DNA of 64,000 nt from positions 1,824,001 through 1,888,000 of the forward strand of contig CAXXYH010000003.1 of the NCBI GenBank assembly GCA_963677925.2, given 5' to 3'. Below are positions 7,501 to 57,299 of this stretch, in pieces. Source of the stretch: Spirochaetia bacterium. Its GTDB lineage: Bacteria > Spirochaetota > Spirochaetia > UBA9216. A model generated the notes under the pieces. That model worked only from the letters and a program-made list of their open reading frames with translations. It searched no databases and was not told the DNA's origin. Positions within the stretch are counted from its first letter, which is position 1; each line of letters opens with the position of its first letter. Both the position numbers and the translations under genes were made by a program.

Positions 7501-7515
7501 TGTTATTCTCCTTTA

Positions 7516-9309
7516 TTAGCTCTTTGATATTGCACCGAATTTACAGCTGGTAAAACATTCACCGCACTTCACACACTGACTCTGGTCAATAACGTGAGCC
7601 TGCTTTCTTTCACCGCTGATACAGTTAACCGGACACTTTCTGGCACATACCGTACAGCCGATACATTTGTCTGCATCAATCTCAAACTTTACAAGATCCT
7701 TACATTTACCGGGCTTACAGACCTTTCCGTCTACATGCTCAAGGTATTCATTCTTAAAGTATTTAAGAGTTGAAAGTATCGGGTTCGGAGCTGTCTGACC
7801 AAGACCGCAGAGCGCAGCCTTTTTCATTGCTGTTCCGATTGTTTCAAGGTTTTCAAGGTCCTTATGAGTTCCCTTACCCTTGCTTATCTTGTCTAGAATA
7901 TCATAGAGCTTTCTGGTTCCGATTCGGCATGGAGCACATTTACCGCAGGACTCTTCAACACAGAAATCCTGATAAAATTTGGCTACGTTGATAATACAGT
8001 CGTCTTCATCCATTACGATCATTCCGCCTGAACCCATCATTGAGCCGATGGCTGTCAGCTGATCAAAGTCGATAGGAGTATCAAGGAATTCAGAAGTAAT
8101 AACACCGCCGGAAGGTCCGCCTGTCTGCACGGCCTTGAATGCCTTACCGTCCCTGATTCCTCCGCCGATATCAAAAACGATTTCACGGAGAGTTGTACCC
8201 ATAGGAACTTCAACCAGACCGGAGTTATTAATCTTGCCTGTGAGGGCAAAAACCTTTGTTCCGGGAGATCTTTCCGTACCGATAGATTTGAACCACTCAC
8301 CGCCTTTAAGGATAATCATGGGAATATTTGCCCAGGTTTCAACATTGTTGATTACAGTCGGCTTTGCCCAAAGTCCTTCAACAGCAGGAAAAGGCGGTTT
8401 CGGAGTAGGCATACCCCTGTTTCCTTCAATAGATCTTAGTAGAGCAGTCTCTTCACCGCAGACAAATGCACCGGCACCGAGTCTGATTTCAAAATCAAAG
8501 TTGAAACCGCTGCCGAGAATATCATTTCCGAAGAGTCCGTATTCTCTGGCCTGTTCAATTGCAATTTCAAGACGTTTAATAGCAAGCGGGTATTCCGCTC
8601 TAATGTATATAACTCCTTTTTCAGCGCCTACAGCGTAACCGGCAATGGCCATAGCCTCAAGAACTGAATGCGGATCGCCTTCAAGAGTACTTCTGTCCAT
8701 ATATGCACCGGGGTCGCCCTCGTCTGCATTACATACAATGTATTTCACATCGTTTTCAACGTCTTTTGTGAATTTCCACTTCATCCATGTCGGAAAGCCG
8801 GCTCCGCCGCGTCCTCTAAGTCCGGAAATTTTAAGCTGCTCTATAACTTCATCCTGAGACATTTCAAAAAGAACTTTTTCGAGCGCTGAATAACCTTCTC
8901 TGGCTATGTACTCATCGATCTTTTCCGGATCAATGAATCCGCAGTTTCTAAGGACTATTCTGACCTGCTTCTGGTAGAATTTAATTTTTTCAATATCAAA
9001 CTCGTCTTTTGAGCCGTTTTCATCATCAACATAGAGAAGTCTTTTAACCATTCGGCCTTTTACGATTGACTCTGCGATAATTTCCTTAGCGTCTTCAGGA
9101 ACAACTTCTACATAAAAAGATTCTTCCGGAAGTATTTTTACGATTGGTCCCTTTTCACAGAAACCGAAACATCCTGTTTTTACAATCTGAACATCATCTG
9201 CAACACCCTGGGCTTCAGCCTCACTTTTCAGGGCATTGAAGATTTCGTTTGCTTTGCTTGATTCGCATGCTGTACCGCCGCAAACAAGTATATAATTCTT
9301 AACTGCCAT
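7516..9309 (-). CDS. hndC: [FeFe] hydrogenase diaphorase subunit (NuoF/HndC/HydB)
   Basis: GLRGRGGAGFP, NADEGDPG, GAFVCGEETAL and ESCGKCAPCR; C-terminal 2x4Fe-4S. Confidence 0.95.
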   Translation of the reverse strand: MAVKNYILVCGGTACESSKANEIFNALKSEAEAQGVADDVQIVKTGCFGFCEKGPIVKILPEESFYVEVVPEDAKEIIAESIVKGRMVKRLLYVDDENGSKDEFDIEKIKFYQKQVRIVLRNCGFIDPEKIDEYIAREGYSALEKVLFEMSQDEVIEQLKISGLRGRGGAGFPTWMKWKFTKDVENDVKYIVCNADEGDPGAYMDRSTLEGDPHSVLEAMAIAGYAVGAEKGVIYIRAEYPLAIKRLEIAIEQAREYGLFGNDILGSGFNFDFEIRLGAGAFVCGEETALLRSIEGNRGMPTPKPPFPAVEGLWAKPTVINNVETWANIPMIILKGGEWFKSIGTERSPGTKVFALTGKINNSGLVEVPMGTTLREIVFDIGGGIRDGKAFKAVQTGGPSGGVITSEFLDTPIDFDQLTAIGSMMGSGGMIVMDEDDCIINVAKFYQDFCVEESCGKCAPCRIGTRKLYDILDKISKGKGTHKDLENLETIGTAMKKAALCGLGQTAPNPILSTLKYFKNEYLEHVDGKVCKPGKCKDLVKFEIDADKCIGCTVCARKCPVNCISGERKQAHVIDQSQCVKCGECFTSCKFGAISKS

Positions 9310-9320
9310 CCTCTCCTCCG

Positions 9321-9713
9321 TTATTCCCTGACAATATCGGCTGCGGGCTTGTCAAAAATATGGTTGTCGACAAGCTTGCCCGCTAAAATATGTTCTTTAA
9401 CTATCCGGCGGGCTGTATCCCCGTCAACCTGTCCATAGATTGTATCCGGCATTCCCGGAGCCTTGATTTCAACTGTAGGTTCTACATAGCAGAGGCCCAT
9501 ACAGCCGGTCTGTTTTACAGTTACATTCTTGACTCCGCTTTTCTCTATTTCATCAAGGAAGGCATCGAGAGCTTCTTTGGCGCCGGCGGCGATTCCGCAT
9601 GTACCCATCCCGATGATGATATGAATATCTTTTCCTTCTGTATCTCTCTTATCAATTTCAGCTTTTTTGCTGTTCCTGAGATTTCTAAGTTCCTCAAGGG
9701 TCATTTTTGCCAT
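9321..9713 (-). CDS. hndB: Thioredoxin-like 2Fe-2S hydrogenase subunit (HndB/HydD)
   Basis: GMGTCGIAAGA and TGCMGLCYVEP motifs; operon position. Confidence 0.88.
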   Translation of the reverse strand: MAKMTLEELRNLRNSKKAEIDKRDTEGKDIHIIIGMGTCGIAAGAKEALDAFLDEIEKSGVKNVTVKQTGCMGLCYVEPTVEIKAPGMPDTIYGQVDGDTARRIVKEHILAGKLVDNHIFDKPAADIVRE

Positions 9714-9715
9714 AA

Positions 9716-10276
9716 TTAATCTCCCTGTATCAAATCTTCTTCCTGTGACCGCAGAAACTGTCTCGCAAGAATAAGCGAGTCTGCATCATTAAGGTCACCA
9801 AGAACCTCTATTATTTCTGATCGTTTTACGGAATACCCGCGTACTTCACCTTCTATCTCCAGGCTGCGTTCAACCGGCATATCATACAGTCCATCAAACA
9901 TGAATGCCTGCAGAATCATCGCGCTGAGGTCTCCGAGAGGAGGGGTATCGATATTATCAAGCGGAAATGTAAAAACAAGGTCGGTCCCTCTGTTCTTTTC
10001 CGACTTTATCGAAAAATCTCCTCCGGTCTGCTCAACCGTCTGGATCAAAAAAGGAAGTCCTAACCCGACTTTGCGTGATTTGTGTTTTATACCGTCCGTA
10101 TAGAATGGATCGACAGCCTTTTTTAATTCGTCTTCATCCATTCCTCTGCCGTTGTCTTTAATTGAAACCGCGAAGTTCCGGGCGGTCTGGTTTATATCAA
10201 GATAAACCTCGGTAGCCCCTGCTTCTACAGAATTCTGAAGACAATCAAGGATAAAATCACAGACGGCTGCATGCAC
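9716..10276 (-). CDS. Stand-alone GHKL (HATPase_c) ATP-binding protein inside the hnd operon
   Basis: LQNSVEAGA, KDNGRGM, DPFYT and KVGLGLP; no HisKA domain. Confidence 0.85.
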   Translation of the reverse strand: MHAAVCDFILDCLQNSVEAGATEVYLDINQTARNFAVSIKDNGRGMDEDELKKAVDPFYTDGIKHKSRKVGLGLPFLIQTVEQTGGDFSIKSEKNRGTDLVFTFPLDNIDTPPLGDLSAMILQAFMFDGLYDMPVERSLEIEGEVRGYSVKRSEIIEVLGDLNDADSLILARQFLRSQEEDLIQGD

Positions 10277-10279
10277 TAA

Positions 10280-10768
10280 TCAGCCTCTGGATCGGAATTT
10301 AGCAAGTACTTCCGGGAGCTCGTCTTTAGTTACTTTACCGAAGACCTCTCCGTCAACTATCATTACCGGTGCAAGACCGCAGCAGCCTACGCATCGAACC
10401 GATTCTATAGAAAAAAGACCGTCATCAGTTACTTCATTCACGGCCACACCGAGAAGTGTCTCAAGCTCTTTGATTAAGTCTTCTCCGCCTTTCAGATAAC
10501 ATGCAGTTCCCATGCATACCTGAATATTGTATTTTCCGGGTTTATCAAGTTTAAAGAAATGATAAAAAGTAATTACACCATAAATCTTGGCCAGCGGTGT
10601 ATCGAGCATGTCGGAAACTTTGATTGCGGCTTCTCTTGGAATATAGCCAAATTCTTCCTGCACCTTGTGAAGTACCATAATCAGATTTCCAGGTTTGTTC
10701 TTCCATTCCTCAATAAATGAAACGAGTTCACTGGAGAACTCGATCTGAGGAGCTGTTTCTACAGCCAT
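10280..10768 (-). CDS. hndA: NuoE-like 2Fe-2S hydrogenase subunit (HndA/HydC)
   Basis: VCMGTACYLKG and RCVGCCGLAP motifs; AGGAGG SD. Confidence 0.92.
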   Translation of the reverse strand: MAVETAPQIEFSSELVSFIEEWKNKPGNLIMVLHKVQEEFGYIPREAAIKVSDMLDTPLAKIYGVITFYHFFKLDKPGKYNIQVCMGTACYLKGGEDLIKELETLLGVAVNEVTDDGLFSIESVRCVGCCGLAPVMIVDGEVFGKVTKDELPEVLAKFRSRG

Positions 10769-22450: not shown

Positions 22451-25400
22451 ATGCAGAACATAGGAATTAACATTGGCTCTTCAAGCCTGAAAATTGTTAT
22501 GCTTGAAGACGGCAAAATCAGCTGGACAAGTGTTCTTCCTCATGAAGGAGATTTTGTCTCCACACTTACTAAATCACTCAGCGGCAGAGACATTGCACCC
22601 GATGCAACAGCCCTGGTAACAGGAACTGAAGGCCGCTACCTTTTCAATATCAAGAGTACAATTGAGACTGTATGTATTGAAAGCGCTCTGAACCAGATTG
22701 GGCACAAGGTAAATGCAGTGGTCAGCATGGGCGGTGAAGATCTGACGGTCTACACTATAGATGAGAATAACAAGATTCAGAACAACTTCACAGGAAGTAA
22801 ATGTGCTTCAGGAACCGGCGAGTTCTTCAAGCAGCAGCTTGGACGAATGGACATGGTTCTCTCTGATGTAGAGAATGTTGATGAGAATGCAAAGGTTCTT
22901 TCTCTGTCATCAAGATGTTCAGTTTTCATGAAGAGTGACTGTACACACCGGCTTAACAAGAGAGAAGCCACAAAGGATGATATCGTTCTTTCTCTAAGCG
23001 ATGTAATGGCCACTAAAGTAATCGACTTCCTCAACAGGGCAAAGATTAAGGACGGAAAGGTTCTTCTTGCCGGAGGAATCACACTTAACAAGTTCATTGT
23101 AAGCTTCATCAAAGAAAAGGCTCCCGGAATCGAGTTTATCGTACCCGAAGAAGCCCCCTACTTTGAAGCCTACGGCGCAGCCCTTCTTGCAGGCGAAAAC
23201 GGAAGCAAGATGCCGGCTGTTGAAAAGCTGCTGAAGGACAATGTTATCAAATTCCCCCGCTATGACAAGCTTTCAAGCGTGATGGACAAGGTAACATACT
23301 TCGAAGCCGAAGTCGGCAAGGTTGAAGCAGGAAAGGAATACATCCTCGGTGTAGACGGCGGTTCAACAACAACCAAGGCCTGTCTTATCGATATTGAAAC
23401 TGATCAGATTGTTGCACAGCATTACGGACGAACCCATGGAGACCCTGTTAAGGCTCTCAAGGGCTGTATCGTTGAACTTCAGAAGAAGATTAAGGAAGAT
23501 ATCGGTGATGAGAAGATTAAAATCAGTCTTGCCTCAACAACCGGGTCTTCACGAGAGATTCTCGGTGTTTTTCTTGAAACATCAGGTGTTTACAACGAGA
23601 TTATTGCTCATGCATACGGAACAACCTTCTTTGCCGAAGATGTAGATACAATCTTCGAAATCGGCGGGCAGGATGCAAAATACGTACTTCTCAATCATAA
23701 GGTACCTATCGATTATGCTATGAACGAGGCATGTTCTGCAGGAACAGGCTCCTTCCTAGAAGAATCAGCATCAGGCGATCTCAACATCAGAAGCGCTGCC
23801 GACATAGGTGACATCGCAATCAAGGCTGAAAGACCGCTGAAGTTCGGCGAGCACTGTTCTGCATTTATCAATTCAGACATCAGAAAGGCTATCCAGCAGG
23901 GAGCCCTTCGTGAAGATATTACAGCGGGTATTGTTACCTCAATTGTTTCAAACTACCTCAACCGCGTAGTTGGAAACAGAACAATAGGAAACAAAATCTT
24001 CCTCCAGGGCGGTGTTGCTAAGAACAAGGCAATTCCGCTGGCATTTGCAATGATGGTAGGAAAAGAGATTCTGGTTCCCCCGTCCCCTGAACTTATGGGA
24101 TGTTTCGGTGTAGGTCTTCTTGCAAAGCAGAAACTTGCCGAGGGACTTCTTGAAAAATCAGAATTCGATCTCGATGCAATACTCGAGACAGAAATTGTCT
24201 ACGAAAAGCAGTTCAGATGCAAGGCATGTGACAATGACTGTCCGATTCAGGTGCTTCAGGTTAACGGTCACAAGTACATGTTCGGCGGACGCTGTTCAAA
24301 ATACACAAACAGCAGAAAGAAGATTGAGACAAGCACCGAGACTGTAGACTTTGTACAGAGACGTTCAGACCTTAACTTTGTTGAGTGCGCCGCTGATCCT
24401 GAAACCTTCGTACAGAAAAGAGATTACACAGTGGGTATTCCAAGGGCCTTCTCGGTTCATTCGCTATACCCGCTTTACTCATGGTTCTTCCATACACTCG
24501 GAATTAAAACCGTGCTTTCAGATGAAATTGCACATGAGGGTATTGCAAGAGCGGAAAGTACTTACTGCTTTCCGGCGGAAATTGCGCACGGAGCAGTTCA
24601 GGACATCATCAACAAGGGCTGTGACTACATCTTCCTGCCTCACTTCAGGGATATGACCAGCTATGAAACCGATGTCCACGCTAACTTCTGTCCTATCACG
24701 CAGGGTCTTCCCTACTACATCAAGAAAGCATTCCCGGATGTTGCCGAGAACAAGATTCTTGAACTTGTAGTTTCCTTCAAATTCGGAAAAGACAAGGCTC
24801 TTGAACTGTTCCAGAAGTTCGGCAAGCAGCTTGATATCAGCGAGGGCGAAATCAAGAAGGCTTTCAACGTTGCCGTTCAGAAACAGGAAGCCTTCCTGCT
24901 CAAGCTTAAAGAACTGGGACTTGAGGCTCTTGAGTTTGCAAGAAACAGCGACAAGCCTGTTATTGCCCTTCTTGGACGTCCCTACAACGCATTCACCCGC
25001 GAAGCAAACATGGGTATCCCCAAGAAATTTACATCAAAGAACTTTACAGTAATTCCGTTCGACATTCTGCCGTACGAGAATGAAGAGATATACGACAACA
25101 TGTACTGGTACTACGGTCAGCAGGACATGAAGTCGGCAAGACTCATCAAGCAGGAAGACAACATCTATGCAGCATGGATTTCAAACTTCTCATGCGCGCC
25201 TGACTCCTTCATGCTCCACTACCTCAAGTGGATTATGGGAAGAAAGCCCTTCCTCGTTCTTGAACTTGACTCACACTCTGCAGACGCCGGTGTCGACACC
25301 CGTGTTGAGGCCTTTCTTGATATTATTGAAGGATACAGAAGCAAGTTTGAAGATGTTGAGCAGGAAAGATACGACAACGGACTGCGGTTCAGAAACGAAG

Positions 25401-26788
25401 ACAGCCTTTATATTGAAAACATCCACAGCGGCGAGAAGTTCCCGGTTATAAACAGCGACCGAGTTGAGCTGATTGTTTCAAACATGGGTGAGATTGCATC
25501 TGAACTGGTAGCAACTGCGCTCACAGCACAGGGTTTCAACGCCAAGTCGATGCCTGTAGCCGATGCTAAAACTCTTGAATACGCAAGAAACTACTGCTCG
25601 GGCAAGGAATGTGTTCCGTCCCAGCTGGTTCTAGGCGGCGCACTCAAGTTCATGGCATCCAAAGAGTTCAGAAAGGACAAGATTTACGCGCTGTTCGTAC
25701 CGATCACAACAGGACCCTGCCGAACCGGTCAGTACTATGTTTTCTATGAAAACCTCTTTCGGGACCTGAAGATTGACAACGTAGTTGTATTCACACTCAG
25801 TGCAGACAACTCATATAACGAGCTAGGTCCCGGCTTCTCTCAGTACGCATGGAAGGCGATCACAGCTTCAGACTACCTGAAGGACGTACAGACAACCCTC
25901 CGGGCCTGTGCCGAAGATCCCGCAGCCGCCATGATTGAATACAAAAAATCCTGGAAGAAGGTTGTGAAATCTGTAGGTGAAGATCTTAAGTCTCTCTACC
26001 CTGCCCTTGAAGTAATGGGTAAGGAAATGGCAACTATCCCGCTGAAGAAGAATCCGCTTGAATGCCCGAAGGTACTTGTAGTTGGTGAAATCTTTGTTCG
26101 ACGTGATGACTTTGCTGTAGACGAGCTTATTGAAAACTTTGCCCGAAAGGGAATAATTGCCAAGGTATCAAGTATTGCGGAATGGATTCACTATACCGAC
26201 TTCGTCCGTGACTATGACATCAAGAAGAGAATCAAGCTTAAGCCCTTCCTTTTCAGACCGTTCACAAAAGAATTCAGAACCTGGGTTTACTACCAGATTG
26301 AAAAGAAATGGAAGGCATCGATGGAACACAAGGCAAAGCATGCTCTTAATGTGAATAACCTTGTCCCCTCAGCTCCGCATGACATGAACAGAATCATGAA
26401 AACTGTAGAGGAAGAGTTTGTCAACCTTGAGCTCAACTCTGAAATTGCAGTTTCTTCAGGTTCCGCTGCAACTGCTATGGAAGAAGGCTACTCGGGTGTT
26501 GTAAACATTTCACCCTTTGCATGTCTTATCGGACGTGTAATTCAGGGAATCTATACTCCATGGGCACGTGAGAGAAACTTCCCGACAATGTCGGTAGAGG
26601 TAGACGGAAACATGCTTCCGCCGAATATTCTCAACCAGCTTAACATCTTCATGCTGAACGTTCTTAGATTCAAGCATGATATGGATATCAAAGACCTTGT
26701 TGACGACAGCGATACTGTCTACAGCTCCGGCCTTGCCGGAATGATGGGATCCGACTCTGAAGAGAAGGAACTTGTTAACCAGAAATAA
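22451..26788 (+). CDS. Fused double acyl-CoA dehydratase activase + DUF2229 + reductase/dehydratase domains (PlsA/Ger-like, putative ether-lipid synthase)
   Basis: Two HgdC/BadG-like domains (CASGTG..SRCSVF; DGGSTTTK, IGGQDAK, NEACSAGTGSF), a CxxCxxxC..GRC linker, then CFPAEIAHG, FSCAPD, GPCRTGQY and PFACL. Confidence 0.85.
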   Translation: MQNIGINIGSSSLKIVMLEDGKISWTSVLPHEGDFVSTLTKSLSGRDIAPDATALVTGTEGRYLFNIKSTIETVCIESALNQIGHKVNAVVSMGGEDLTVYTIDENNKIQNNFTGSKCASGTGEFFKQQLGRMDMVLSDVENVDENAKVLSLSSRCSVFMKSDCTHRLNKREATKDDIVLSLSDVMATKVIDFLNRAKIKDGKVLLAGGITLNKFIVSFIKEKAPGIEFIVPEEAPYFEAYGAALLAGENGSKMPAVEKLLKDNVIKFPRYDKLSSVMDKVTYFEAEVGKVEAGKEYILGVDGGSTTTKACLIDIETDQIVAQHYGRTHGDPVKALKGCIVELQKKIKEDIGDEKIKISLASTTGSSREILGVFLETSGVYNEIIAHAYGTTFFAEDVDTIFEIGGQDAKYVLLNHKVPIDYAMNEACSAGTGSFLEESASGDLNIRSAADIGDIAIKAERPLKFGEHCSAFINSDIRKAIQQGALREDITAGIVTSIVSNYLNRVVGNRTIGNKIFLQGGVAKNKAIPLAFAMMVGKEILVPPSPELMGCFGVGLLAKQKLAEGLLEKSEFDLDAILETEIVYEKQFRCKACDNDCPIQVLQVNGHKYMFGGRCSKYTNSRKKIETSTETVDFVQRRSDLNFVECAADPETFVQKRDYTVGIPRAFSVHSLYPLYSWFFHTLGIKTVLSDEIAHEGIARAESTYCFPAEIAHGAVQDIINKGCDYIFLPHFRDMTSYETDVHANFCPITQGLPYYIKKAFPDVAENKILELVVSFKFGKDKALELFQKFGKQLDISEGEIKKAFNVAVQKQEAFLLKLKELGLEALEFARNSDKPVIALLGRPYNAFTREANMGIPKKFTSKNFTVIPFDILPYENEEIYDNMYWYYGQQDMKSARLIKQEDNIYAAWISNFSCAPDSFMLHYLKWIMGRKPFLVLELDSHSADAGVDTRVEAFLDIIEGYRSKFEDVEQERYDNGLRFRNEDSLYIENIHSGEKFPVINSDRVELIVSNMGEIASELVATALTAQGFNAKSMPVADAKTLEYARNYCSGKECVPSQLVLGGALKFMASKEFRKDKIYALFVPITTGPCRTGQYYVFYENLFRDLKIDNVVVFTLSADNSYNELGPGFSQYAWKAITASDYLKDVQTTLRACAEDPAAAMIEYKKSWKKVVKSVGEDLKSLYPALEVMGKEMATIPLKKNPLECPKVLVVGEIFVRRDDFAVDELIENFARKGIIAKVSSIAEWIHYTDFVRDYDIKKRIKLKPFLFRPFTKEFRTWVYYQIEKKWKASMEHKAKHALNVNNLVPSAPHDMNRIMKTVEEEFVNLELNSEIAVSSGSAATAMEEGYSGVVNISPFACLIGRVIQGIYTPWARERNFPTMSVEVDGNMLPPNILNQLNIFMLNVLRFKHDMDIKDLVDDSDTVYSSGLAGMMGSDSEEKELVNQK

Positions 26789-26811
26789 GCTGATCTATTT
26801 TTAAAACACTG

Positions 26812-26850
26812 GGAGCTGACTAAGAACTATTCTTAGCCGGCTCTTTTTTT
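26812..26850 (+). terminator. Intrinsic terminator
   Basis: GAGCTGACTAAGAA-cta-TTCTTAGCCGGCTC followed by T7. Confidence 0.85.
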
Positions 26851-26984
26851 ATGGCATAAATCAATGTTTTACAAACCAGACCGGTCCTGCCGACACTTTT
26901 GCAGCCGTTTTTAACGTAAAATTAATACAATTTTTGTAAGAAATGGCACATTGTATATGGAATTCTCTATGAAAGAATGCTAAT

Positions 26985-27017
26985 TTAAACATACGTTTGA
27001 TTTAAACGGACGTTTAA
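26985..27017. promoter_or_regulatory. Tandem palindromic TetR operator
   Basis: TTAAACATACGTTTGA and TTAAACGGACGTTTAA directly before the tetR ATG. Confidence 0.7.
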
Positions 27018-27019
27018 TT

Positions 27020-27656
27020 ATGAGTATTATAAATTTATCAACCAAGAAAAAAATACTGGATACAGCCTATGAGCTGTTTTCGGAGAACGGATATGAGGGG
27101 ACATCGGTCAGACAGCTGGCGAAAGAAGCCGATGTCAATATTTCACTGATTGGATACTACTTCGGCGGTAAGGAAGGACTCTACCGTGAAGTTATAAACC
27201 ACAGAATAGGTGAGTTCAGCAACAACTTTGTTGCCTCAGTTCAGGATGAGAAGGATGTTAAAAAGCGGATAAGAAGGTTCTCGGAGCTGCTCCTTTCGTC
27301 TCTCATTGAATCACCTTCCATTCTTACGATAATTACAAGAGAGCTTGTGACAGGCAAAAATAATACCGCCTTTGTAACAGCCGAACTGGTAAAGAATTTT
27401 ATGATCATTTTTTAATTCCTTTTTCACAGACTCAGCCTTACCTGATCTCCTGGAACTGGATGTAACAGAAATGATCTTCGATATATTTATGGTGATAGCA
27501 CCAATCTATTTTTACAGCATAGTCAAGCCGCTTATAGATGACAATATGTTGATGGATGAACACGAAATAGAATCATTCCACGACAAACTGGTAGATCAGG
27601 CCTACGAGATGGGTCTGAAACTATATAAAAGCAATACGAAAGGCTTTACAGCATAA
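27020..27656 (+). pseudogene. TetR/AcrR regulator split by a +1 frameshift (or sequencing indel)
   Basis: HTH (GYEGTSVRQLA..IGYYFGGKEGLY) in 27020-27415. Removing one T from T6 at 27408-27413 joins it to ORF 27471-27656, giving 211 aa. Confidence 0.8.
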
Positions 27657-27672
27657 TCAAACTGGAGTCAAT

Positions 27673-30600
27673 ATGAATAACAAAACCCTCCTCGCGGGAA
27701 TAGACGTCGGTTCAACCACGGTAAAGATTGCCGTAATGGAACCGGAAACCAAAGAAGTCGTTTTCTCAAGATATCAGAGACATAATGCGGATCAGGCATC
27801 GACCGTTTACTCGATACTGACAGAGGTACATGAAAATTTTTCAGACAGAGATATCAGTCTTGCAGTCTGCGGAAGCGGAGGCCAGAGCATAGCCGAATCA
27901 CTTCAGGCATTCTTTATACAGGAAGTGGTGGCAAACTCAATAGCGATAAGAACCTTTTATGATGATGTAAGGGTTGCAATTGAGCTTGGCGGTCAGGATG
28001 CCAAGGTTATATTTTTCAGGCATGATGAAGAAAGCGACAGCCTGGTGGTACATGACATGAGGATGAACGGAAGCTGTGCGGGCGGTACTGGGGCATTTAT
28101 CGATCAGGTGGCCGAGCTTCTGCATGTAACACCCGAACAATTCGGGGCACTTGCTGCCGCCGGAACTGAGGTTTATTCCATTTCAGGCCGATGCGGCGTA
28201 TTCGCAAAGACTGATATTCAGCCGCTTTTAAACCAGGGCGTATCAAAGGAAGACATTGCACTTTCCTCATTTCACGCTATTGCAAAGCAGACCATAGGCG
28301 GCCTTGCCCAGGGTATGGAGATTAGGCCGAAGGTAATATTTGAGGGCGGTCCGCTTACATTCAACCCGCGTCTTATTGAAGTATTCAAGGAACGACTTAA
28401 CTTAAGTGATGCGGATACAATTATCCCGGACAACCCTGAAATTATTGTTGCCGTCGGTGCAGCCCTTTCTATTGAAGCCATGTTCAGCGGTAAGGAAGAC
28501 CTTTACAAAAACGGCGCCAACCTTGAGAAAATCCTTTACAGGCAGGCAACCGGTATACTTGAACAGGACAAGGAACTGCCTTTCTTCTACGACACCGACG
28601 AAATGAACCTGTTCAGAGAGGAGCGAAGGCTTCCGGATTTTACCCCAAAGGCATGGGAGCCCGGTACAATACTGCCTGTATACATTGGTATGGATGCCGG
28701 TTCTACAACAAGTAAATTTATTCTAATGACCGAAGATGAGGAAATTGTCGATATCTTCTACGCCAATAACCAGGGGGATCCCCTCACAATTATCAAGGAA
28801 GCTCTTACACAGATGTATGAAAAATACATCGGCATGGGCGTTGCGCTTGAGATCAGGGGAATGGGAAGTACCGGCTATGGCGAGCTGCTTTTCAACAAGG
28901 CTTTCAAGGGAGACTACCATACTGTAGAAACAGTAGCGCACGCGGAAGCGGCAAAGAAGTATGCGCCCAACGTAAGTTTTATTCTTGATATCGGCGGACA
29001 GGATATGAAGGCTATCTACGTCAATGACGGCGTAGTTACCGGAATAGTTTTAAACGAGGCCTGTTCGGCAGGCTGCGGTTCCTTTATTGAGACCTACGCT
29101 AAGAGCCTTGGCGTAAAGGTTCAGGATATAGCCGACATCGCCTTTCAGGCCGGAAGTCCGTCAAAGCTCGGATCAAGATGTACCGTTTTTATGAACAGCT
29201 CAATTATTACCGAACAGAAAAACGGCAAGAGCACCGGCGACATCCTTGCAGGAATTTCCCGATCAATTATTGAGAACGTATTTACCAAGGTTATCAGAAT
29301 GTCAAACCTTGAATCTTTGGGCGAGTGTATTGTGGTACAGGGAGGAACCTTCAAAAACGATGCGGTTCTCAGAAGCCTCGAGCAGTACACCGGAAAGCAG
29401 GTTGTAAGACCGCCGCATCCGGGAGAGATGGGAGCTATCGGTATTGCCCTGCTTACAAAAAAGTATATAGCCCGTCAGGAAGAAAAGACCGGCAGGAAAT
29501 ACCAGAGCACTTTTATAGGGACTGGAAAATATTGAAGCCTTCAGTTTTACTAAAAAAGCAGGTCAGGTCTGCAGCTTCTGTTCAAACAACTGTAACCGGA
29601 CGATAATCGAATTTAACAACGGAAGCAGACATGTAACCGGAAACCGCTGTGAAAAGGGAGAGGTCTTCGGCGATGTCAGGGAGAAGTCTGTTAAGGACAG
29701 ACTGAAAGAGGTTAACGGCAGACTTAATGCTGTGCCAGACATGATCAAGCTTCAGAATAAGCTTCTTGTAATGGATTATGCTCCGGAGCAGAAGGCTGTA
29801 ACCCAGGGAATCACCATAGGGATTCCGAGAACCCTTGAGTTCTGGAACTCTCTTCCGTTCTGGAAAAGCCTTTATACCTCGCTCGGGTTCAAGGTTGTAG
29901 TTTCCGCTCCAAGTTCGTACAAACTCTTTGAAAGCGGTCTGCAGTCTATTCCCTCCGATACAGTCTGTTTTCCGGCAAAGCTGGTACACGGACATGTTCA
30001 GGATCTGATCAGCAGGAAGGTTGATAGAATCTTCAACCCGGTACTGACCAGAATCCCTAAGGAAAATGAAAAAGCCGAAGACAGCTGCAACTGTCTAGTT
30101 GTTCAGGGCTATTCGATGGTTGTTGATGAAAGCGATACCCCTGAAGCAAAGAACGGCATCAAGTATGACAGGCCTGTCTTTCACTTCGACACCCGGAAAC
30201 TCATGGATAAGCAGATCTGCGAGTACATGAAGATAACCTTCGGCATCGATTTCAATACTACAAGGAGCGCGCTTGAAGAGGCGCATTCTATTCAGGAAGA
30301 TTACTCCGACAGGATGCAGAGAAAGGGCCGTGAGGTAATTAAAAGCCTTGAAGGCAAGGATGATTTTGCGGTTGTTCTAGCGGGCAGGCCCTACCATAAC
30401 GACCTGCTTGTGAATCACGGAATCGCCGACCATTTCAAGAAGATGGGAATTCCGGTTCTTAACCTTGAATCCATTGCCGAGATCCATGATCAGTCTTTTG
30501 ATCATGTAAGATTCGACAGCCTGATAGCCTTTCACGGCAGAATGTACTCTGCTGCAAGCTTTGTTGCCGAGCATCCGAACCTTGAACTTGTTCAGATTGT

Positions 30601-32098
30601 TTCATTCGGATGCGGACATGACGCGATTATTTCAGATGAGATGGCCAGAATACTGAATGACAGAGCCGGAAAGCAGATGCTGGTTCTAAAACTCGATGAG
30701 GGTGAAAATCAGGGACCGCTTAATATCAGAATCAAATCATTTATTGAAACGGTAAAAGCAAGCAGGAGGCTTAAAAAAGACAATCCTGTAGAGCTTAAAG
30801 AATACTGCAAACCCTATGAGGTGAAGTTCGAAAAAGAAGACAAGCGAAGGACCGTACTGATCCCGACCCTGTCTCCGGCCTTTGCAAAGTATTCAGCCAA
30901 GGTTCTTGAGGCTGAAGGCTACAAGGCTGTTCCGGCCATGCTTGCCGACAGGGAAGCCATTGCCCTGGGGAAGAAATACGTCCACAACGATATATGCTAC
31001 CCGGCCCAGATCAACGTAGGCGAACTGCTGAAAACCATCAGGGATGGGAACTATAAGTCAACAGATGTTGCCATCGGACTTGCGAAGAACTGTGAAGCAT
31101 GCAGAGCCGGGCATTATGCGGGACTGGCAAGAAAAGCCCTCGATGAAGCAGGTTATGCCGATGTGCCGATCCTGACCACTGGTAAGGACACAAAGGATAT
31201 GCATCCCGGCTTCAAGGTTACGCTTAAGTTCCAGATGAACATGCTCTGGTCGATAACAATTACCGATGTTCTTGAGGAAATACGCAGGAAGATAAGACCG
31301 TACGAGGTTAACGCCGGTGAATCCGATGAACTTTTTGAACTGTATACAGATTTCATCTATGACAATATCTGCAGCAGCCGCAAAAAGGCTTTGAAGTACT
31401 TTGAACAGGCTATTGAAGCATTCAACAATGTCGAATGCGACCGGACCATCAGAAAGCCGAGGGTTGGAATTATCGGAGAAATCCTGATGAACTTCCACCC
31501 GGAATCAAATGCCAATGTAGAACGCTACCTTGAAGCCAACGGAATGGAAACAGTCTTCCCCGCCATGCATGATTTTTTCAGGCAGAGTGTTGTTATCAAG
31601 AAAGAGAAAGGCAGACGCGGGCACACATCAAATGCGTTCATGGATTACTGCCTCAACGGTCTCACCGACTATGTGTACGGTTCTGTTCACAAAAAGGTTG
31701 ATGAATACTACCGGAAGTTCAAGTTTTATGACGGCTATGGAGATGTGAAGAATCTTGCCGAAAACACTTCTGATATGATGGACATGACATACCGCGGCGG
31801 TGAGAGCTGGATGATGCCCGGAGAAGTAATAGAGCTTGCAAAGAAGGGTGTTAACTCCTTCGTATATGTTCAGCCATTCGGCTGTATGCCGAACCACATT
31901 ACCGGTCGCGGAATGATCAAGACTGTAAAGAAGAAGTTTCCTCATATTCAGATCATTGCGCTTGATTACGATCCTGATACAGCGCTTGCAAACATCGAGA
32001 ACCGTCTGCAGATGCTGATAATTTCCGCAAGGGAACTGGAGAAGAAATCAGCGGACAGGAACCGTGATAGAATAGAAGCCCTGGCAGTGAGAGATTAA
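27673..32098 (+). pseudogene. Second PlsA-like fused activase/reductase protein, split by a +1 frameshift (or sequencing indel)
   Basis: ORFs 27673-29535 and 29732-32098. Removing one G from GGG at 29518-29520 gives ..STFIGLENIEAF..CSFCSNNC..GNRC.. and a 1474-aa protein ending in QPFGCMPNHITGRG. Confidence 0.85.
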
Positions 32099-32114: not shown

Positions 32115-32780
32115 ATGATTATTAAAAAATTACCGGTTCTAATTTTTTTGATCTTATTTTCAGCCTCTGCCGAAACTTTGTCCGCAATATCCGGAGAGGC
32201 TGAACCTGTATCGGAAAACTACCGGATTTCAATGACTACTCTGCTCGGCCGTGACAAGGAATATCTGAATGTGTTAATAGAAGAATCAGACCCGGATGAT
32301 TATTTCAGGCTCGGAATCCTGTATACAAACAAAATACTGCTTTCCGACAGCATTAAGACTCTTGATGAGGCTGTTGAAAATCTTGCCCTCGCTGAAACAG
32401 ACGGCAAGGATGACAGCCTGCTCAGGATATATAAGGGGATAACCGAGGCCTTTCTTGCCCAAAAAAAGACTTTTCTAGGCGTTGAGAACATTAAAAACAC
32501 CGAAGCTTTTATGAGCTCCGTTTCAGACAGCCATCCTGACTGGTTCATTCGCTTTCTCAGGGGAATTTCCTACTACAGATTCGGGCATGGGCTTCCCGGA
32601 ATAGGCCCAATCAAGCCTTATAAAACAGAAGCCCTGCGGGTAGGAAGAATGGATCTGGAATATGTTATCAAGAGCCATAATACAAACAGCATCAGGGAAT
32701 ATAATTCTGCGGATTATGACTGGATAGGGAGACCTGTGCCGGACAGTGCAGCAGCCTTTGCAGAAGATCTGCTCAAATAG
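32115..32780 (+). CDS. Hypothetical exported helical (TPR-like) protein
   Basis: AGGAGG SD, signal peptide, helical repeats; 16 bp after the second PlsA-like gene. Confidence 0.6.
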   Translation: MIIKKLPVLIFLILFSASAETLSAISGEAEPVSENYRISMTTLLGRDKEYLNVLIEESDPDDYFRLGILYTNKILLSDSIKTLDEAVENLALAETDGKDDSLLRIYKGITEAFLAQKKTFLGVENIKNTEAFMSSVSDSHPDWFIRFLRGISYYRFGHGLPGIGPIKPYKTEALRVGRMDLEYVIKSHNTNSIREYNSADYDWIGRPVPDSAAAFAEDLLK

Positions 32781-32874: not shown

Positions 32875-33453
32875 ATGAAAAGATTAATTTTAATACTGTT
32901 ATGTCTTTCTGTTGCAGCTTTCAGTTTTGGAGAAAGCGAAAAGGGGCTGCGGGTAGATGCCGAAATTGGAGCATCATTCTCTCTTTTTTCAACATATGTT
33001 ACTGCTCACCCCAAACTGATGTACGATTTGGGATTTCCGGCTGTCGGAGCCGGTGTCGGAGCATACTTCGGAACTACATTTTCAGACATCTATATCGGGC
33101 CTTTTGCCAGTCTTGAGCTTGGATGGCTGTATTTTGATATCGGAGGATTATTTAAAGTAGTTGCCCCGGATGAATCGAAGGCGGAAAACGGCTATGTTGA
33201 TTACTATACCGAAAGCGATATAATGCCGTGGGCTGCAGCCGGGCTTGCAATTCCGATATTTCCGATTGGACCGGGAAAACTGGGCGCCGATATATCACTG
33301 GGCTTCATACCAACTAACAGTCCTGTTCAGGTAGTTGATGATTCGGGTTCAATTCTTGGAGATCTTATAGGATCATTATTCGGAACGGTGATAACATCAG
33401 TTTTCGATTCTGCAAAACTTGGTGCATCACTTTTCTACACCATAACGTTTTAA
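32875..33453 (+). CDS. Hypothetical exported protein, possible small outer-membrane beta-barrel
   Basis: GGAGGAG SD, signal peptide, amphipathic strands, C-terminal FYTITF. Confidence 0.55.
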   Translation: MKRLILILLCLSVAAFSFGESEKGLRVDAEIGASFSLFSTYVTAHPKLMYDLGFPAVGAGVGAYFGTTFSDIYIGPFASLELGWLYFDIGGLFKVVAPDESKAENGYVDYYTESDIMPWAAAGLAIPIFPIGPGKLGADISLGFIPTNSPVQVVDDSGSILGDLIGSLFGTVITSVFDSAKLGASLFYTITF

Positions 33454-33522: not shown

Positions 33523-34164
33523 TCATTCAAAAAGTATACCGTTTCCCTTAAAGAATCCGTCCTGCAGACTATTTAGATCAAGAGATTTCAACCCCTTTTC
33601 GGTGAGCAGATTAGTGAAGAAAATTCTTGCTGCAGTAGTATAGAGTTCCGGAATACTGACGGGAAGAATATCAGGACTATTCCAGCTGCTCAGACCGTTA
33701 ACGGCAGAAAACATCAGGTATACAACCGCTTCGGTCTTATAATCAGTCCGGAATGTTCCCTCTTCCTTCATGGCATCGATCAGCCGTCCCAGCATTCTGG
33801 CCAGATTCTTCTGAATATACACATTCGGGACAGCCTTCAAATGCGGGTTTTCAAGAATCATATCACGGTGGATATTACTGTTCCGGTTTTTCATAAAGTT
33901 GGAGGAATCAAGCATAAAGCGTTTTAGCTTATCAATAGAGCTGATATTCTCATCGTCAATGAATGCTGTATATGTCTCTACAACAAACTTTGCATACCAT
34001 TCAATAGTTTTATTAAAAAGATCATCTTTATTTGTAAAGTGATTATAAATGGTCTTTTTACTTACACCGGCCTCATCGGCAATATCCTGGACATTAGTAC
34101 GTTTATATCCGTATTTATCAAAAATCTTAAATGAAGCAATGAAGATTCGATCATCTTTAAGCAA
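33523..34164 (-). CDS. TetR/AcrR family regulator
   Basis: GYKRTNVQDIADEAGVSKKTIYNHFTNKDDL HTH. Confidence 0.9.
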   Translation of the reverse strand: MLKDDRIFIASFKIFDKYGYKRTNVQDIADEAGVSKKTIYNHFTNKDDLFNKTIEWYAKFVVETYTAFIDDENISSIDKLKRFMLDSSNFMKNRNSNIHRDMILENPHLKAVPNVYIQKNLARMLGRLIDAMKEEGTFRTDYKTEAVVYLMFSAVNGLSSWNSPDILPVSIPELYTTAARIFFTNLLTEKGLKSLDLNSLQDGFFKGNGILFE

Positions 34165-34529: not shown

Positions 34530-37082
34530 ATGAGAAAATTACTTATGATTCTGGTTTTTACCTGTATCAGTTCTGTATTATCATTCAGCCTGAGTTTCTC
34601 TGATTCAAATTTAATGATGATTCAGGAAGCCGAAACAGGCGACTTACTGTCAGGGCTCAGCATGCGGCTTGGCGGGGAAGATTCCGGAATAGTGGTCCTT
34701 ATCAGAGATGCACAGATTCAGCTTGACGATAAAGGCAGACGAATCCTCAGGGTATTTGATTCAATAATTCCCTCCCGTGATACTTTTATACGGATAGTTG
34801 ATTATGAGATAGCTATAGGCTCAGGCAGTATCACTAAACTCAGCGAAACCTCCGCAGGCGGCTATCTGAAAAACAGCGGAATGCTGAAAATTACTGCTGA
34901 CGAACTGATATCATTCAATTCAGATGATTATCCGGTACTTAGATGTTCCGTAGTCGTTGCCGGGGTTTCCGCAGGAATATTCCAGACTGAACTTAATTCC
35001 CAAACATGGCAGTATCCTGAGGAAGGTCTTAAACTCTACGACGGACAGATTAGGCTCAACAACCATATATTTAACTTTCAATCGATGCTTCTCAAGGGTT
35101 CAAGGCTGGTGCTGCGCGATAATGCTGTGAGCTTTTTCGGTCTTGATGCTGCAATGGATGTAATAGTATTGAATACAGGGACATTGGATATTATAGATCG
35201 AAGCGCACTGATATTACCGGAATCAGTGTATACATCAGACAGACTTTCACTGATTGCTGGGGAAGGAACCGATTTTGAGATTCCTTTTATTCTTGAAGTC
35301 TGTCGCGCGGAAGGTGAAAAGATTTCTGCCGATAAAGCTGTTTTAAAAATACCTGCCGGTTTTGAAGTAGATAACAAGGATGAATCTATCATCATTCCGG
35401 GTATCATCGTAGGATTTGCAGGTATAGAATCCGGGAAGAGCAGCCTGAAAGCATCTTACAATTATAAGGGGTGGGATTTCAGTTTCAGTTCGATCGGTCT
35501 TACCGTCGACGGATTGGTACTGCAGGGAAAAACGGATGTAAGAATCAACAGCCGCAACAGGAGGGGCGGGACTGTTCCTGTTTTTGCCGACAGAATATCT
35601 ATCTCCGCTGCCGGTGATTTATCTCTTGATAGATCTGATGCGCTTATCAGTCAGTCATATGAAAATCTTCACCGTGATTCAGTTATGTTTGCAGATACTG
35701 TGTATCTAAAACCGCACAGTCCTGCCCTAATTCGAAAAGATGATGAAGTTCTTTTTAATTTCAAGGAATACTCGGTTATACAGCCGGCAGGTTATGAAGA
35801 AATTGCACTCTCCGGTTCTAATCTGATTATTGATTCTAATGGAGATATCCATCCTTCATCACAGGAGGTGAATGAAATTTATAGACCTGTCAAATTCTAC
35901 AGCCCCCCGGGATTAGAGCTGAACGCCGATAAATGGACTATAAACAGGGAGGGGCTGTTTTACAGCGGGTATTTGCTTTTTGACGGACGATATCAAATGG
36001 AGAGTGGCGATAAGGGAGTTTATATTGAGAAAGCGGTATTTGATCAGGGGGCAATATATACTGATATAAAAACTCCAGCCAAGCCAGTCCGGTTCAGCGT
36101 GGAAGGATGGCGCTTTGAAGCCGATAAATTCAATCTGAGTAACGGAAGGATTCACTGGTACGGAGCCAGCTGGATATATGAGCCTGAAAAAATTGCATTT
36201 CCGCTGAAGATTCCTGAAAAGCAGTACTTCCCCGGTGAAACACCCAGTCTGATTATTAATTATGACGGAAAATTTTTTGAACCTGCACAGATTAAAAGCA
36301 TACCGGAATATCCGCTTCTTTTTAACCATGCTGAGCTGCGCTCTGCAGAAATCTCTGAGAATGGAGAGTTTACCATGGACGGCTACCTGGTATCCCACGC
36401 ATTCGGAGGTGTTAAAATATATGTTAAAAGACTGCCGATGCTTCAGGATGGAACAATCCCCGAGTTTAAAGACGCTTTTGTCAGCTCTTCTAATAAAACT
36501 AAATTCAACAACAGTGAAATAGTGTTCAGCGGCATAACCATTAAAGAATCTGCTCTGAAATTCGATTCGGTTAAAGTTGACTTTAATAATCCAAGAATTA
36601 CCGGCGGAATAGAACTGTATAATGTCAGAGAGTTCAGTAATAACCGTTTTGGCTACAGCAACAGTATGGCTGCATCATTATATGTTGATGGCGTAAAGAT
36701 AGATGCACAGCTACTGAGTTTTGACAGTGATAAAGCTGTTTTTTCAGGCGTCGCCTCCGCAGTGATAAAGGGACTGCCTAATATTTCCGGCCGTTTTGAT
36801 GAATGGACTGTATACCATGACGGCAGGATAGATTCTCTTAAATGTGATTTAGGCAGCCGAAAGATACTGTACCAATCAGAGGAGTTTACCATCAGGGCTC
36901 AAAATATTGAACTGTTCAGCCCTCCCCCGCCAGGAAGTTCAGCGACCGCCGGATGGATCTTGCTAAAACGACCGACTATCAGGCTTCAAGGAAAAAGTGA
37001 GGATCAGGAAATCGATCATATCTGGATAAATACAGCCACAGCCGAATACTCATTCGGTAATCAGGATTTTAAACGGCTTTGA
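34530..37082 (+). CDS. Large exported beta-strand-rich hypothetical protein
   Basis: 850 aa with a signal peptide and recurring beta-hairpin-like segments; no recognisable catalytic motif. Confidence 0.65.
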   Translation: MRKLLMILVFTCISSVLSFSLSFSDSNLMMIQEAETGDLLSGLSMRLGGEDSGIVVLIRDAQIQLDDKGRRILRVFDSIIPSRDTFIRIVDYEIAIGSGSITKLSETSAGGYLKNSGMLKITADELISFNSDDYPVLRCSVVVAGVSAGIFQTELNSQTWQYPEEGLKLYDGQIRLNNHIFNFQSMLLKGSRLVLRDNAVSFFGLDAAMDVIVLNTGTLDIIDRSALILPESVYTSDRLSLIAGEGTDFEIPFILEVCRAEGEKISADKAVLKIPAGFEVDNKDESIIIPGIIVGFAGIESGKSSLKASYNYKGWDFSFSSIGLTVDGLVLQGKTDVRINSRNRRGGTVPVFADRISISAAGDLSLDRSDALISQSYENLHRDSVMFADTVYLKPHSPALIRKDDEVLFNFKEYSVIQPAGYEEIALSGSNLIIDSNGDIHPSSQEVNEIYRPVKFYSPPGLELNADKWTINREGLFYSGYLLFDGRYQMESGDKGVYIEKAVFDQGAIYTDIKTPAKPVRFSVEGWRFEADKFNLSNGRIHWYGASWIYEPEKIAFPLKIPEKQYFPGETPSLIINYDGKFFEPAQIKSIPEYPLLFNHAELRSAEISENGEFTMDGYLVSHAFGGVKIYVKRLPMLQDGTIPEFKDAFVSSSNKTKFNNSEIVFSGITIKESALKFDSVKVDFNNPRITGGIELYNVREFSNNRFGYSNSMAASLYVDGVKIDAQLLSFDSDKAVFSGVASAVIKGLPNISGRFDEWTVYHDGRIDSLKCDLGSRKILYQSEEFTIRAQNIELFSPPPPGSSATAGWILLKRPTIRLQGKSEDQEIDHIWINTATAEYSFGNQDFKRL

Positions 37083-54801: not shown

Positions 54802-54962
54802 ATAAGACAGCGTAATAATAATTGAATAACTATTCCTTTTCCAGTCTCCCGGGAAAACCGGGAGATATCTCAAACTGATTTTACCAATTTAAAGTTTACA
54901 ATATACCCTACCGAGAATTTTATAAACTAAAAACATAACCCCGCGTCAGGAGCTATTTTTTA

Positions 54963-55639
54963 ATGAAACCCGTTAAGTTAATCGTCTGCCTTATTACTCT
55001 TTCATTATTGTTCTCTTCGTGTGCTACTGTTAAAGATTCTAAAACTGTTATCCCGGAAGCTGTTACTGAATATATTGATATCAACGGAACCGATTTTCAA
55101 AATTATGAACTCAGCGACTGCAGCCGGTCTGACTACAATATAATCAAGCAGACTTATAATGTTTATGAACCAATCGACAGGGTATGGATGAGCTACATTA
55201 ATACCGGGCTGACGGCAGTCTTCAGCGGCGGCATAATGAATTTTGGAGTTATGTATAACCCCATAGATTACGGGCTCTATAATTCAGAAGATATTTTACC
55301 CCGTATTAAAGAAGGCCAGATATTCATTATTGAACTGACTTACCTTGGATTTTATAAAATACCGGCGGCATTCAAAGTCACTCAAATTGATTCCAAAAAG
55401 AAAATGATAGAGTTCATATACCTCAAGAATAATAAGTCCAATGGTTTCCAGCAGATATTTTTCAATACCGTAACAGACAGCCATAACAGGGCTGTAACGG
55501 CAGTCACACATGTTTCATTTTTAAAAGCAATGATGAGCTGAGAGATAAACTGCTCTACCCTCCCTTTCACGAGAAAACAATCGATGACTTTCATGAAAAT
55601 ATATTCAGGATTAACCAGTTTAGATGGAATAGAATCTGA
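54963..55639 (+). pseudogene. Hypothetical lipoprotein with a probable -1 frameshift near the C-terminus
   Basis: Lipobox FSSC. Adding one T to T5 at 55518-55522 extends it: VSFFKSNDELRDKLLYPPFHEKTIDDFHENIFR..* (225 aa). Confidence 0.55.
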
Positions 55640-55724
55640 TCCATATCCCATGTTTTAAACAATTGACAGCAGCTCCAACTTTTCCTAATATTCTTTGTCC
55701 CTAAAGAATATTTTGGAGAAATTA

Positions 55725-57298: not shown

Positions 57299-57299
57299 A

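Follow-up and report, generated by a model that had tools for sequence, protein, structure and literature searches.

Within a 64,000-nucleotide stretch of the genome of a Spirochaetia bacterium (assembly GCA_963677925.2, contig CAXXYH010000003.1, positions 1,824,001 to 1,888,000; hereafter the window), two giant genes with the architecture of the anaerobic ether-lipid enzymes PlsA and Ger lie in tandem at positions 22451 to 32098. In our reading, the two genes, here called copy 1 and copy 2, are distant paralogues of a single enzyme type and not a coordinated dual system. The explanation that we favor, with moderate confidence, is that copy 1 works, that copy 2 is a decaying paralogue of the PlsA clade, and that copy 1 most likely converts a lipid ester to an ether. 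Copy 1 has the marks of a working gene in that it is intact, is followed by its own terminator, shows a codon bias like that of the hydrogenase genes, and belongs to a highly conserved clade found mostly in genomes without a PlsA-like gene. Copy 2 and the TetR-family regulator in front of it are predicted from sequence to belong to the PlsA/PlsR-type clade. Due to a 1-base insertion in copy 2 and a regulator that looks frameshifted, copy 2 most likely is inactive or decaying, or alternatively is misassembled.

Two distant paralogues share one architecture

An earlier note on this DNA, made from its letters, had described two tandem giant paralogues with a common domain order, and open reading frames (ORFs), Pfam matches, and alignments bear this out. 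Pfam detected two BcrAD_BadFG domains and a DUF2229 domain in copy 1 and, in copy 2, two BcrAD_BadFG domains in the N-terminal part and DUF2229 in the C-terminal part. In copy 1, the first ATPase domain (Act1) covers residues ~4 to 250, the second (Act2) residues 297 to 565, a four-cysteine (Cys4) linker residues 590 to 615, DUF2229 with the first reductase module (Red1) residues 660 to 872 onward, and the second reductase module (Red2) the remainder to residue ~1411. As the note had proposed, Pfam and motif comparison place the PlsA/PlsR-Ger architecture (two activase domains, a cysteine linker, DUF2229, and a second reductase module) in both genes, with an uninterrupted reading frame in copy 1 and a split by a frameshift in copy 2. 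The motifs that it quoted are also present: GINIGSS and MGGED in copy 1, and GIDVGST, LGGQD, and, near the end, QPFGCMPNH in copy 2. The two proteins are homologous along their full length yet distant, with 29% identity (178/609) in the ATPase half and 22% identity (146/675; pairwise E value of 1e-34) in the reductase half. They are the only DUF2229 genes in the whole genome (5.04 Mb in 4 contigs). The features of the locus, all on the forward (+) strand, are as follows.

22451-26788, +: copy 1, an intact gene for a 1445-aa fused enzyme (ORF, Pfam, Protein Data Bank [PDB] sequence matches, and structural model)
22460-23200, +: first ATPase domain of copy 1, with GINIGSS and MGGED and both cluster cysteines retained
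24218-24295, +: CxxCxxxC...C linker of copy 1, a candidate [4Fe-4S] site (conserved cysteine columns)
26811-26852, +: intrinsic terminator 3' of copy 1, a hairpin (26811-26845) followed by U7; inverted repeat I1
26985-27017, +: inverted repeat I2, with 14-nt arms that are 86% complementary, directly before the TetR start
27020-27415, +: N-terminal 131 aa of the TetR-family regulator, ending at a T6 run (TetR_N, 1.4e-15)
27405-27656, +: open frame of 83 aa that probably encodes the shifted C-terminal portion of the TetR (a stop-to-stop frame, assigned by geometry)
27673-29535, +: ATPase half of copy 2, 620 aa, Act1 and Act2 with canonical motifs (ORF, Pfam)
29518-29521, +: frameshift site GGGA, one base extra relative to a ~92%-identical relative
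29519-32098, +: reductase half of copy 2, with Cys4 linker, DUF2229/Red1, and Red2 (second open frame)

The last four residues of the copy 2 ATPase half are out of frame and are followed by TGA. The terminator that the earlier note had assigned to copy 1 was recovered as a hairpin of -17.3 kcal/mol (z = -2.44) with its U7 tract, and a spacer of 231 nt leads from copy 1 to the TetR ORF. The proposed resemblance of copy 1 to the hydrogenase (hnd) genes in codon usage also held: relative synonymous codon usage of copy 1 correlated at 0.88 with the hnd genes versus 0.755 with the other window ORFs, and that of copy 2 at 0.74 and 0.795, respectively. Copy 2 does lie behind a TetR, recognized by TetR_N at 27020-27415. 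A promoter-like site at 27001-27030 is overlapped by inverted repeat I2, which we infer to be a candidate operator.

Both copies contain HgdC/BcrAD-type ATPase domains by Pfam and NCBIfam matches, and the ATPase halves of copy 1 match in sequence HadI (4eht), HgdC (1hux), MbdQ/P (9gai_D/C), and DCCP-R (7yyl_E) in the PDB. In an HgdC-type ATPase pair, such cysteines hold a bridging [4Fe-4S] cluster, and the catalytic module of the superfamily binds its cluster through three cysteines. The ATPase cluster cysteines, two per domain, are retained in Act1 and Act2 of both copies and in every sequence compared. Among the 101 rows of our reductase-half alignment, the four linker columns hold cysteine in 100 rows and a gap in the remaining one, and the four linker and six reductase cysteines together are conserved in 100 to 101 of the rows, across all clades and including copy 2. 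The residues around each catalytic cysteine vary by clade (for example, FSCAPDSF versus FGCGHDA and SPFACLIGR versus QPFGCMPNH). An AlphaFold model of residues 584 to 1445 of copy 1, built from a 60-row alignment, reached a pLDDT of 91.1 and a pTM of 0.89. With this reductase model, Foldseek returned matches at a probability of 1.00 to catalytic chains of the double-cubane cluster protein (DCCP; 7yyl_A and 6eno), 3-methylbenzoyl-CoA reductase (MbdON), benzoyl-CoA reductase (BzdNO), and 2-hydroxyisocaproyl-CoA dehydratase (HadBC); the entries matched include 9gai_A/B, 8s02, and 3o3m/n/o. Each match spans about half of the model, and the best is DCCP; sequence identity of the copy 1 reductase half to solved catalytic subunits is 9 to 14%. 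The copy 2 reductase half had no sequence match in the PDB, which has no entry for an assayed PlsA or Ger. On the basis of what is established for the superfamily, both genes would encode the same machine for ATP-driven injection of low-potential electrons into a carbonyl.

Phylogenetic placement of the two copies

Reference genes came from PLSDB, in which some chromosomes are filed as plasmids and tblastn yielded 11 matching records; those used were from Listeria monocytogenes, Collinsella aerofaciens (two genes), Acetoanaerobium noterae, Fusobacterium animalis (a two-gene form), and Paraclostridium. Three of the "plasmid" records, NZ_CP030101.1, NZ_CP154629.1, and NZ_CP084075.1, are 2.1 to 2.9 Mb long and evidently chromosomes. 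The first tree was computed from the reductase half in 101 rows (LG+G4, quick search, SH-aLRT support only), comprising copy 1, the copy 2 half, five of the named genes, 6 of 120 listed copy 1 matches, 11 of 120 listed copy 2 matches, and the 77 of 150 library representatives that are 1300 to 1700 aa long. The second tree (LG+C20 PMSF, 43 rows) combined 38 rows of the first with four spirochaete genes and the Fusobacterium PlsA part, and Paraclostridium was dropped as a long branch. Both trees are unrooted.

In both trees, a PlsA-like clade received 100% SH-aLRT support, its stem length being between 0.98 and 1.56. Subclade I of this clade contains the genes of Listeria and Acetoanaerobium, one Collinsella gene (Collinsella_B), the Fusobacterium two-gene form, and genes of two spirochaete families. 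Subclade II contains copy 2, its best match (P0122), the genes of Haliovirga and Fibrobacter, the other Collinsella gene (Collinsella_A), and other spirochaete genes. Copy 1 falls across the PlsA-like branch in both trees, inside a separate group with 100% support. Consistent with these positions, the copy 2 reductase half is 33.5% identical to the Listeria protein (E value of 8e-136), whereas copy 1 is 21.8% identical to it (E value of ~1e-25). Grouping with the PlsA type is supported for copy 2, which shares the Listeria clade, and is not supported for copy 1, which lies on the far side of a fully supported branch.

Neither Pfam domain strings (BBDH and similar, at E values of ≤10) nor protein mass served to discriminate among clades. 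The strings did not separate the clades, and mass matching to the published Ger (159 kDa) and Ger2 (153 kDa) was not decisive, with copy 1 at 161.4 kDa and other clades spanning 155 to 169 kDa.

Two observations concern relatives of copy 2. In C. aerofaciens (NZ_OY725717.1), the two PlsA-like subclades are represented by one gene each; the products are 1479 and 1593 aa long, the genes are ~60 kb apart, and each adjoins a TetR-type gene; this pair is a natural candidate for the proposal of one PlsA plus one Ger per genome. A PhzF-family gene lies directly 3' of the PlsA-like gene both in Listeria (L003:6700-7548) and in the spirochaete with the closest copy 2 homologue (G059; L129:10871-11725), and the two PhzF proteins cluster together.

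A large and sharply defined clade around copy 1

The best 120 listed matches of copy 1 are 64 to 100% identical over the full length, with orthologues at 64 to 91%, and those with names come from Spirochaetales metagenome-assembled genomes (MAGs) and Smithella. A scan of species genomes gave at least 592 pattern matches, with a relative encoded in at least 552 species. The best 80 of these belong to Smithellaceae/Syntrophaceae and to some Spirochaetota or Leptospiraceae MAGs and are 74 to 87% identical to the Smithella protein, its own record aside; neither Desulfatibacillum nor Thermotoga is among these best 80. No relative was found in the viral contigs scanned, and the ESM Atlas returned only generic "activase/DUF2229" clusters. 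In a library of representatives at 50% identity, the copy 1 reductase half matched 644 representatives at E values of ≤1e-30, and copy 2 is more distant from copy 1 than is any of the first 150 (E values of ≤2e-73).

The first ATPase domain of copy 1 had been described as degenerate. All 29 aligned members of the clade have the asparagine of GINIGSS (N7 in Smithella numbering), which replaces the aspartate of PlsA-like proteins, and all 29 likewise have G94, G95, E96, D97, C118, and C156, and so the "degenerate" domain is a fixed trait of the clade and not decay. In Act2 of copy 1, the phosphate-1 motif reads GVDGGST. Neighboring clades have the canonical aspartate or other losses in this domain. 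All 14 cluster cysteines are retained in the copy 1 clade.

In a delta proteobacterium MAG (CAWJQM010000002.1), the copy 1 orthologue is present as two ORFs of 576 and 888 aa. This split lies close to the same ATPase/reductase boundary as the break in copy 2 of the window.

Copy 2 is frameshifted, and its regulator appears to be

By tblastn, two homologues (P0122 and P0158) follow one frame of copy 2 to position 29520 (...FIG) and the next frame from 29519 (GLE...), confirming that the frameshift noted earlier is real in this sequence. A related organism in a public sequencing run (X2) differs from the window at 109 positions over 1401 bases (~92% identity), and one of its contigs covers 28800-30200 and lacks exactly one base, at 29521. 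Compared with this in-frame relative, the window thus carries a 1-base insertion in copy 2. The extra base is an A after GGG and is not the extension of a homopolymer. In the run that is the probable source sample (X1; 0 differences at a depth of ~2), the assembled contigs stop and start at 29519 without spanning 29519-29522, so the extra base lacks independent confirmation. The first ATG, GTG, or TTG of the second frame is at 29732, 3' of all four linker cysteines, and re-initiation in copy 2 might conceivably occur at a non-canonical CTG (29522) or ATT (29531). Programmed +1 frameshifting at 29521 was set aside: the relative is without the base, and no known slippery or stop context was seen.

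A T6 run at 27408-27413 marks the end of the TetR ORF, whose 131 aa cover only about the first 105 to 125 positions of NCBIfam TetR models that are 190 to 195 positions long. The following 83-aa frame ends at 27656, 16 nt before copy 2, and had no Pfam match even at E values of ≤10. Judged by this geometry, the regulator upstream of copy 2 looks frameshifted as well. The earlier note had proposed a constitutive copy 1 paired with an inducible copy 2, which does not fit a frameshifted copy 2 behind an apparently frameshifted TetR; the "inducible enzyme" would at best describe an ancestral state or reflect an assembly error.

Among the 50 other ORFs of the window (~59 kb), no clearly broken gene was seen, as judged by Pfam match ranges. 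Two breaks in one 5-kb operon with none clear in the other ~59 kb therefore favor local decay over random assembly error, short of proof. In the closest genomic homologue of copy 2 (G059:C8:25029-27593; 55% identity), there is one TAG inside the match.

The two genes do not form a conserved pair

We searched 300 other Spirochaetota genomes, with classes assigned by E value and identity and four of the genes placed in the second tree. A copy 1 orthologue (E value of 0; 57 to 63% identity in the reductase half) was present in 51 of the 300 genomes and a PlsA-like match (E values of ≤1e-120) in 76, of which 10 resembled subclade II (44 to 55% identity). Three additional genomes had a half-length PlsA-like match in a ~975-aa frame, as in the two-gene form. 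Only 2 of the 51 genomes with a copy 1 orthologue (G210 and G057) also had a PlsA-like gene, and in G210 the two genes are ~1.4 Mb apart. None of five further genomes with copy 1 (three Smithellaceae, one Leptospiraceae MAG, and one Spirochaetota MAG) had a PlsA-like gene, the best match in them being 27% identical with an E value of 6e-63. A copy-2-like gene was found within ~7.5 kb of a copy 1 orthologue at 0 of 30 located loci. These counts do not support the paired system that had been proposed for the locus, at least as a conserved module.

The copy-2-like genes at 10 spirochaete loci had no conserved neighbor. The TetRs beside different PlsA-like genes share 23 to 25% identity, confined to the N-terminal DNA-binding end, and by this measure appear not to be orthologous. 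Many spirochaete genomes carry two to four paralogues from further classes.

Known systems and a proposed mechanism

What follows on characterized enzymes is drawn from the available parts of the papers cited. PlsA/PlsR is encoded by CPE1194-1195 of Clostridium perfringens, and the single-gene PlsA of Enterococcus faecalis, L. cremoris, and B. longum subsp. suis produced plasmalogens in Escherichia coli; the two C. perfringens genes total 4287 bp and the single genes 4248 to 4920 bp (PMC12838417). Listeria, a reported plasmalogen maker, and E. faecalis carry orthologues, and in E. faecalis a TetR lies upstream of the pls gene (PMC9702350), as one does beside copy 2. The domain order Act1-Act2-Red1-Red2 and the total size of PlsA/PlsR match those of the window copies. 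Copy 2 shares a 100%-supported clade with the genes of Listeria and Acetoanaerobium, Collinsella_B, and the two-gene Fusobacterium form, but it is in the sister subclade II, shows 33.5% identity to the Listeria reductase half, and is frameshifted. Set against the Listeria-type genes, copy 1 differs in lying outside the clade and in having asparagine for aspartate in the first ATPase domain.

Ger of Thermotoga maritima (Tmari_0479/AGL49404.1) and D. alkenivorans (SHJ90043) makes 1-O-alkyl ethers under anoxia only, with homologues in many phyla, Spirochaetes included (PMC13159169, PMC8788747). The accessions and domain strings tabulated in the supplement of PMC13159169 name no spirochaete in the part available. 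Ger, a stand-alone gene active only anaerobically, has the same BBD core architecture as the window copies (PMC13159169). D. alkenivorans Ger also yields diethers, and its Ger2 (SHK01260) is a precedent for a second homologue per genome with an unclear role (PMC11150832); the published masses of the two do not discriminate between them and copy 1. Ger and PlsA are at present described as not distinguishable by primary structure, and one Ger plus one PlsA was proposed for two Bacillota with two homologues (PMC13274423). As found in print, PlsA and Ger are the only functions assayed for this architecture, and a literature search for "glycerol ester reductase" with "Spirochaet" found only the Ger paper and its preprint. 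For the plasmalogens that the earlier note ascribed to some anaerobic spirochaetes, a literature search yielded no usable support. Relative to the BCR/HAD/DCCP enzymes, which comprise the 2-hydroxyacyl-CoA dehydratases with HgdC/HadI activators, the class I benzoyl-CoA reductases (BzdNOPQ and MbdONPQ), and DCCP with DCCP-R, the ATPase halves of copy 1 are alike by sequence and its reductase half is alike by fold; the difference is that the window copies fuse all parts in one chain and add the Cys4 linker.

By analogy with the family, each copy would combine two HgdC/BcrAD-type ATPase domains, a Cys4 linker, and two HgdA/B-like iron-sulfur catalytic modules in one polypeptide. Reduced ferredoxin or flavodoxin would load the [4Fe-4S] cluster between the two ATPase domains, ATP hydrolysis would push the electron via the linker cluster to the catalytic clusters, and these would reduce a hard-to-reduce carbonyl. 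For the PlsA/PlsR-type clade, the expected chemistry would be conversion of the sn-1 ester of membrane glycerophospholipids to a vinyl or alkyl ether. Judging by family membership, copy 1 most likely reduces a lipid ester to an ether with only its second ATPase site catalytic.

Neighboring genes

The two ORFs 3' of copy 2 (32115-32780 and 32875-33453) matched neither Pfam nor NCBIfam models and have no equivalent next to relatives. An intact second TetR of 213 aa (33523-34164, - strand) is divergent from an 850-aa ORF (34530-37082, + strand) that is without a Pfam match. At 5749-10768 (- strand), an Hnd-type [FeFe]-hydrogenase cluster with a codon bias unlike the window average encodes the large subunit, a Nuo51-like FMN subunit, and two thioredoxin-like [2Fe-2S] proteins, and it also encloses a histidine-kinase-like ATPase ORF. 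The earlier note had suggested this hydrogenase as an electron source for the pair. It lies 12 to 17 kb away on the other strand with unrelated genes in between, and the link amounts to nothing beyond what holds for any ferredoxin-dependent enzyme. Genes for an aldehyde dehydrogenase, an aldehyde:ferredoxin oxidoreductase, and an iron alcohol dehydrogenase are grouped at 53332-60332 along with LysR and IclR regulators. About 450 kb from the locus (C3:1394145-1397357), an HgdC-like activase (269-aa frame) and two HGD-D subunits (399- and 440-aa frames) constitute a separate classical three-gene enzyme of the 2-hydroxyacyl-CoA-dehydratase type.

Weighing the explanations

A true dual system would require two functional genes and frameshifts that arose as errors of assembly, with copy 1 constitutive, copy 2 under TetR control, and the two enzymes making different ether bonds (vinyl and alkyl, or sn-1 and sn-2). 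We consider this distinctly unlikely. The genes are in tandem on the same strand, and TetR genes adjoin PlsA-like genes in Collinsella and Acetoanaerobium as well as the E. faecalis pls gene (PMC9702350). Possession of one Ger and one PlsA per genome, hypothesized for two Bacillota in the available text of PMC13274423, would have a counterpart in the Collinsella genome with a gene of each subclade. Also in its favor, positions 29519-29522 are unbridged by the probable source-sample contigs, and the frameshift falls at the Act2/linker boundary where natural two-gene forms begin their reductase protein, since DUF2229-only proteins of ~850 to 880 aa cover 98% of the query. However, the two frameshifts fall within one 5-kb operon, the A at 29521 extends no homopolymer, and the second frame offers no ATG, GTG, or TTG ahead of the linker cysteines. 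Elsewhere the pairing is rare and non-syntenic, and the TetRs beside PlsA-like genes have just 23 to 25% identity over the DNA-binding end. It is also unlikely, in our estimate, that the copy 1 clade acts on something other than membrane glycerolipids, for example a small molecule, a thioester, or some different ester, and that only copy 2 is lipid related. For such a role there is the precedent of DCCP, the best structural match of copy 1, whose physiological substrate is unknown. A long and fully supported branch parts copy 1 from the PlsA-like clade, with ~22% identity in the reductase half and a clade-specific context around every catalytic cysteine, and the two to four paralogues of several classes in many spirochaetes suggest several substrates. 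Yet copy 1 orthologues have no conserved pathway partner next to them, such as a CoA-transferase or an acyl-CoA dehydrogenase, and a stand-alone gene fits an enzyme acting on a bulk cell component. Copy 1 also occurs mostly where a PlsA-like gene was not found, it combines high conservation with hydrogenase-like codon bias, and the three-gene HgdC/HGD-D system already provides for CoA-ester chemistry in this genome.

Several points weigh against the explanation that we favor, a working copy 1 for ether lipids beside a decaying PlsA-type copy 2. The TetR shift falls in a T6 run and its C-terminal part is without homology support, and both frameshifts could be assembly errors. The near-exclusive distribution of the two genes may just follow lineage because related genomes are not independent. 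Our label "PlsA-like clade" rests on genes of Listeria, Fusobacterium, and Collinsella from annotated records; the trees were built without C. perfringens PlsA/PlsR, E. faecalis PlsA, T. maritima Ger, and D. alkenivorans Ger/Ger2, and an assayed Ger could fall in the copy 1 branch or elsewhere. Ger2, which is closely homologous to an active Ger, is reported to have given no ether lipids in E. coli (PMC11150832, in the part available), making homology a weak guide to activity in the PlsA/Ger family. Finally, copy 1 orthologues had no conserved neighbor and no adjoining lipid gene in the lineages examined.

Implications for the PlsA/Ger family

We tentatively raise a further possibility, which we regard as rather doubtful, that the copy 1 clade represents a third functional class, distinct from PlsA and Ger. 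Such an enzyme would be asymmetric, with one of its two ATP sites dead and the other live. Across at least 552 species, among them anaerobic spirochaetes of free-living habit, Smithellaceae, and many other anaerobes, it would replace the PlsA-like enzyme and either make a distinct product, for example saturated or sn-2 ethers, or reduce another bulk carbonyl. If this is true, the signatures of copy 1 would supply the discriminator between Ger and PlsA that is said to be wanting.

The locus itself is an ordinary instance of a catalogued family. What it adds is that two far-apart branches of the family stand side by side in one genome, with the PlsA-type gene apparently decaying and the other branch preserved intact and under strong conservation. 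The non-isoprenoid ether lipids of anaerobes are relevant to the debate on the "lipid divide" and to sediment biomarkers. Because it is large and sharply defined and we found no assayed member in print, the copy 1 clade is the next branch of the family worth assaying.

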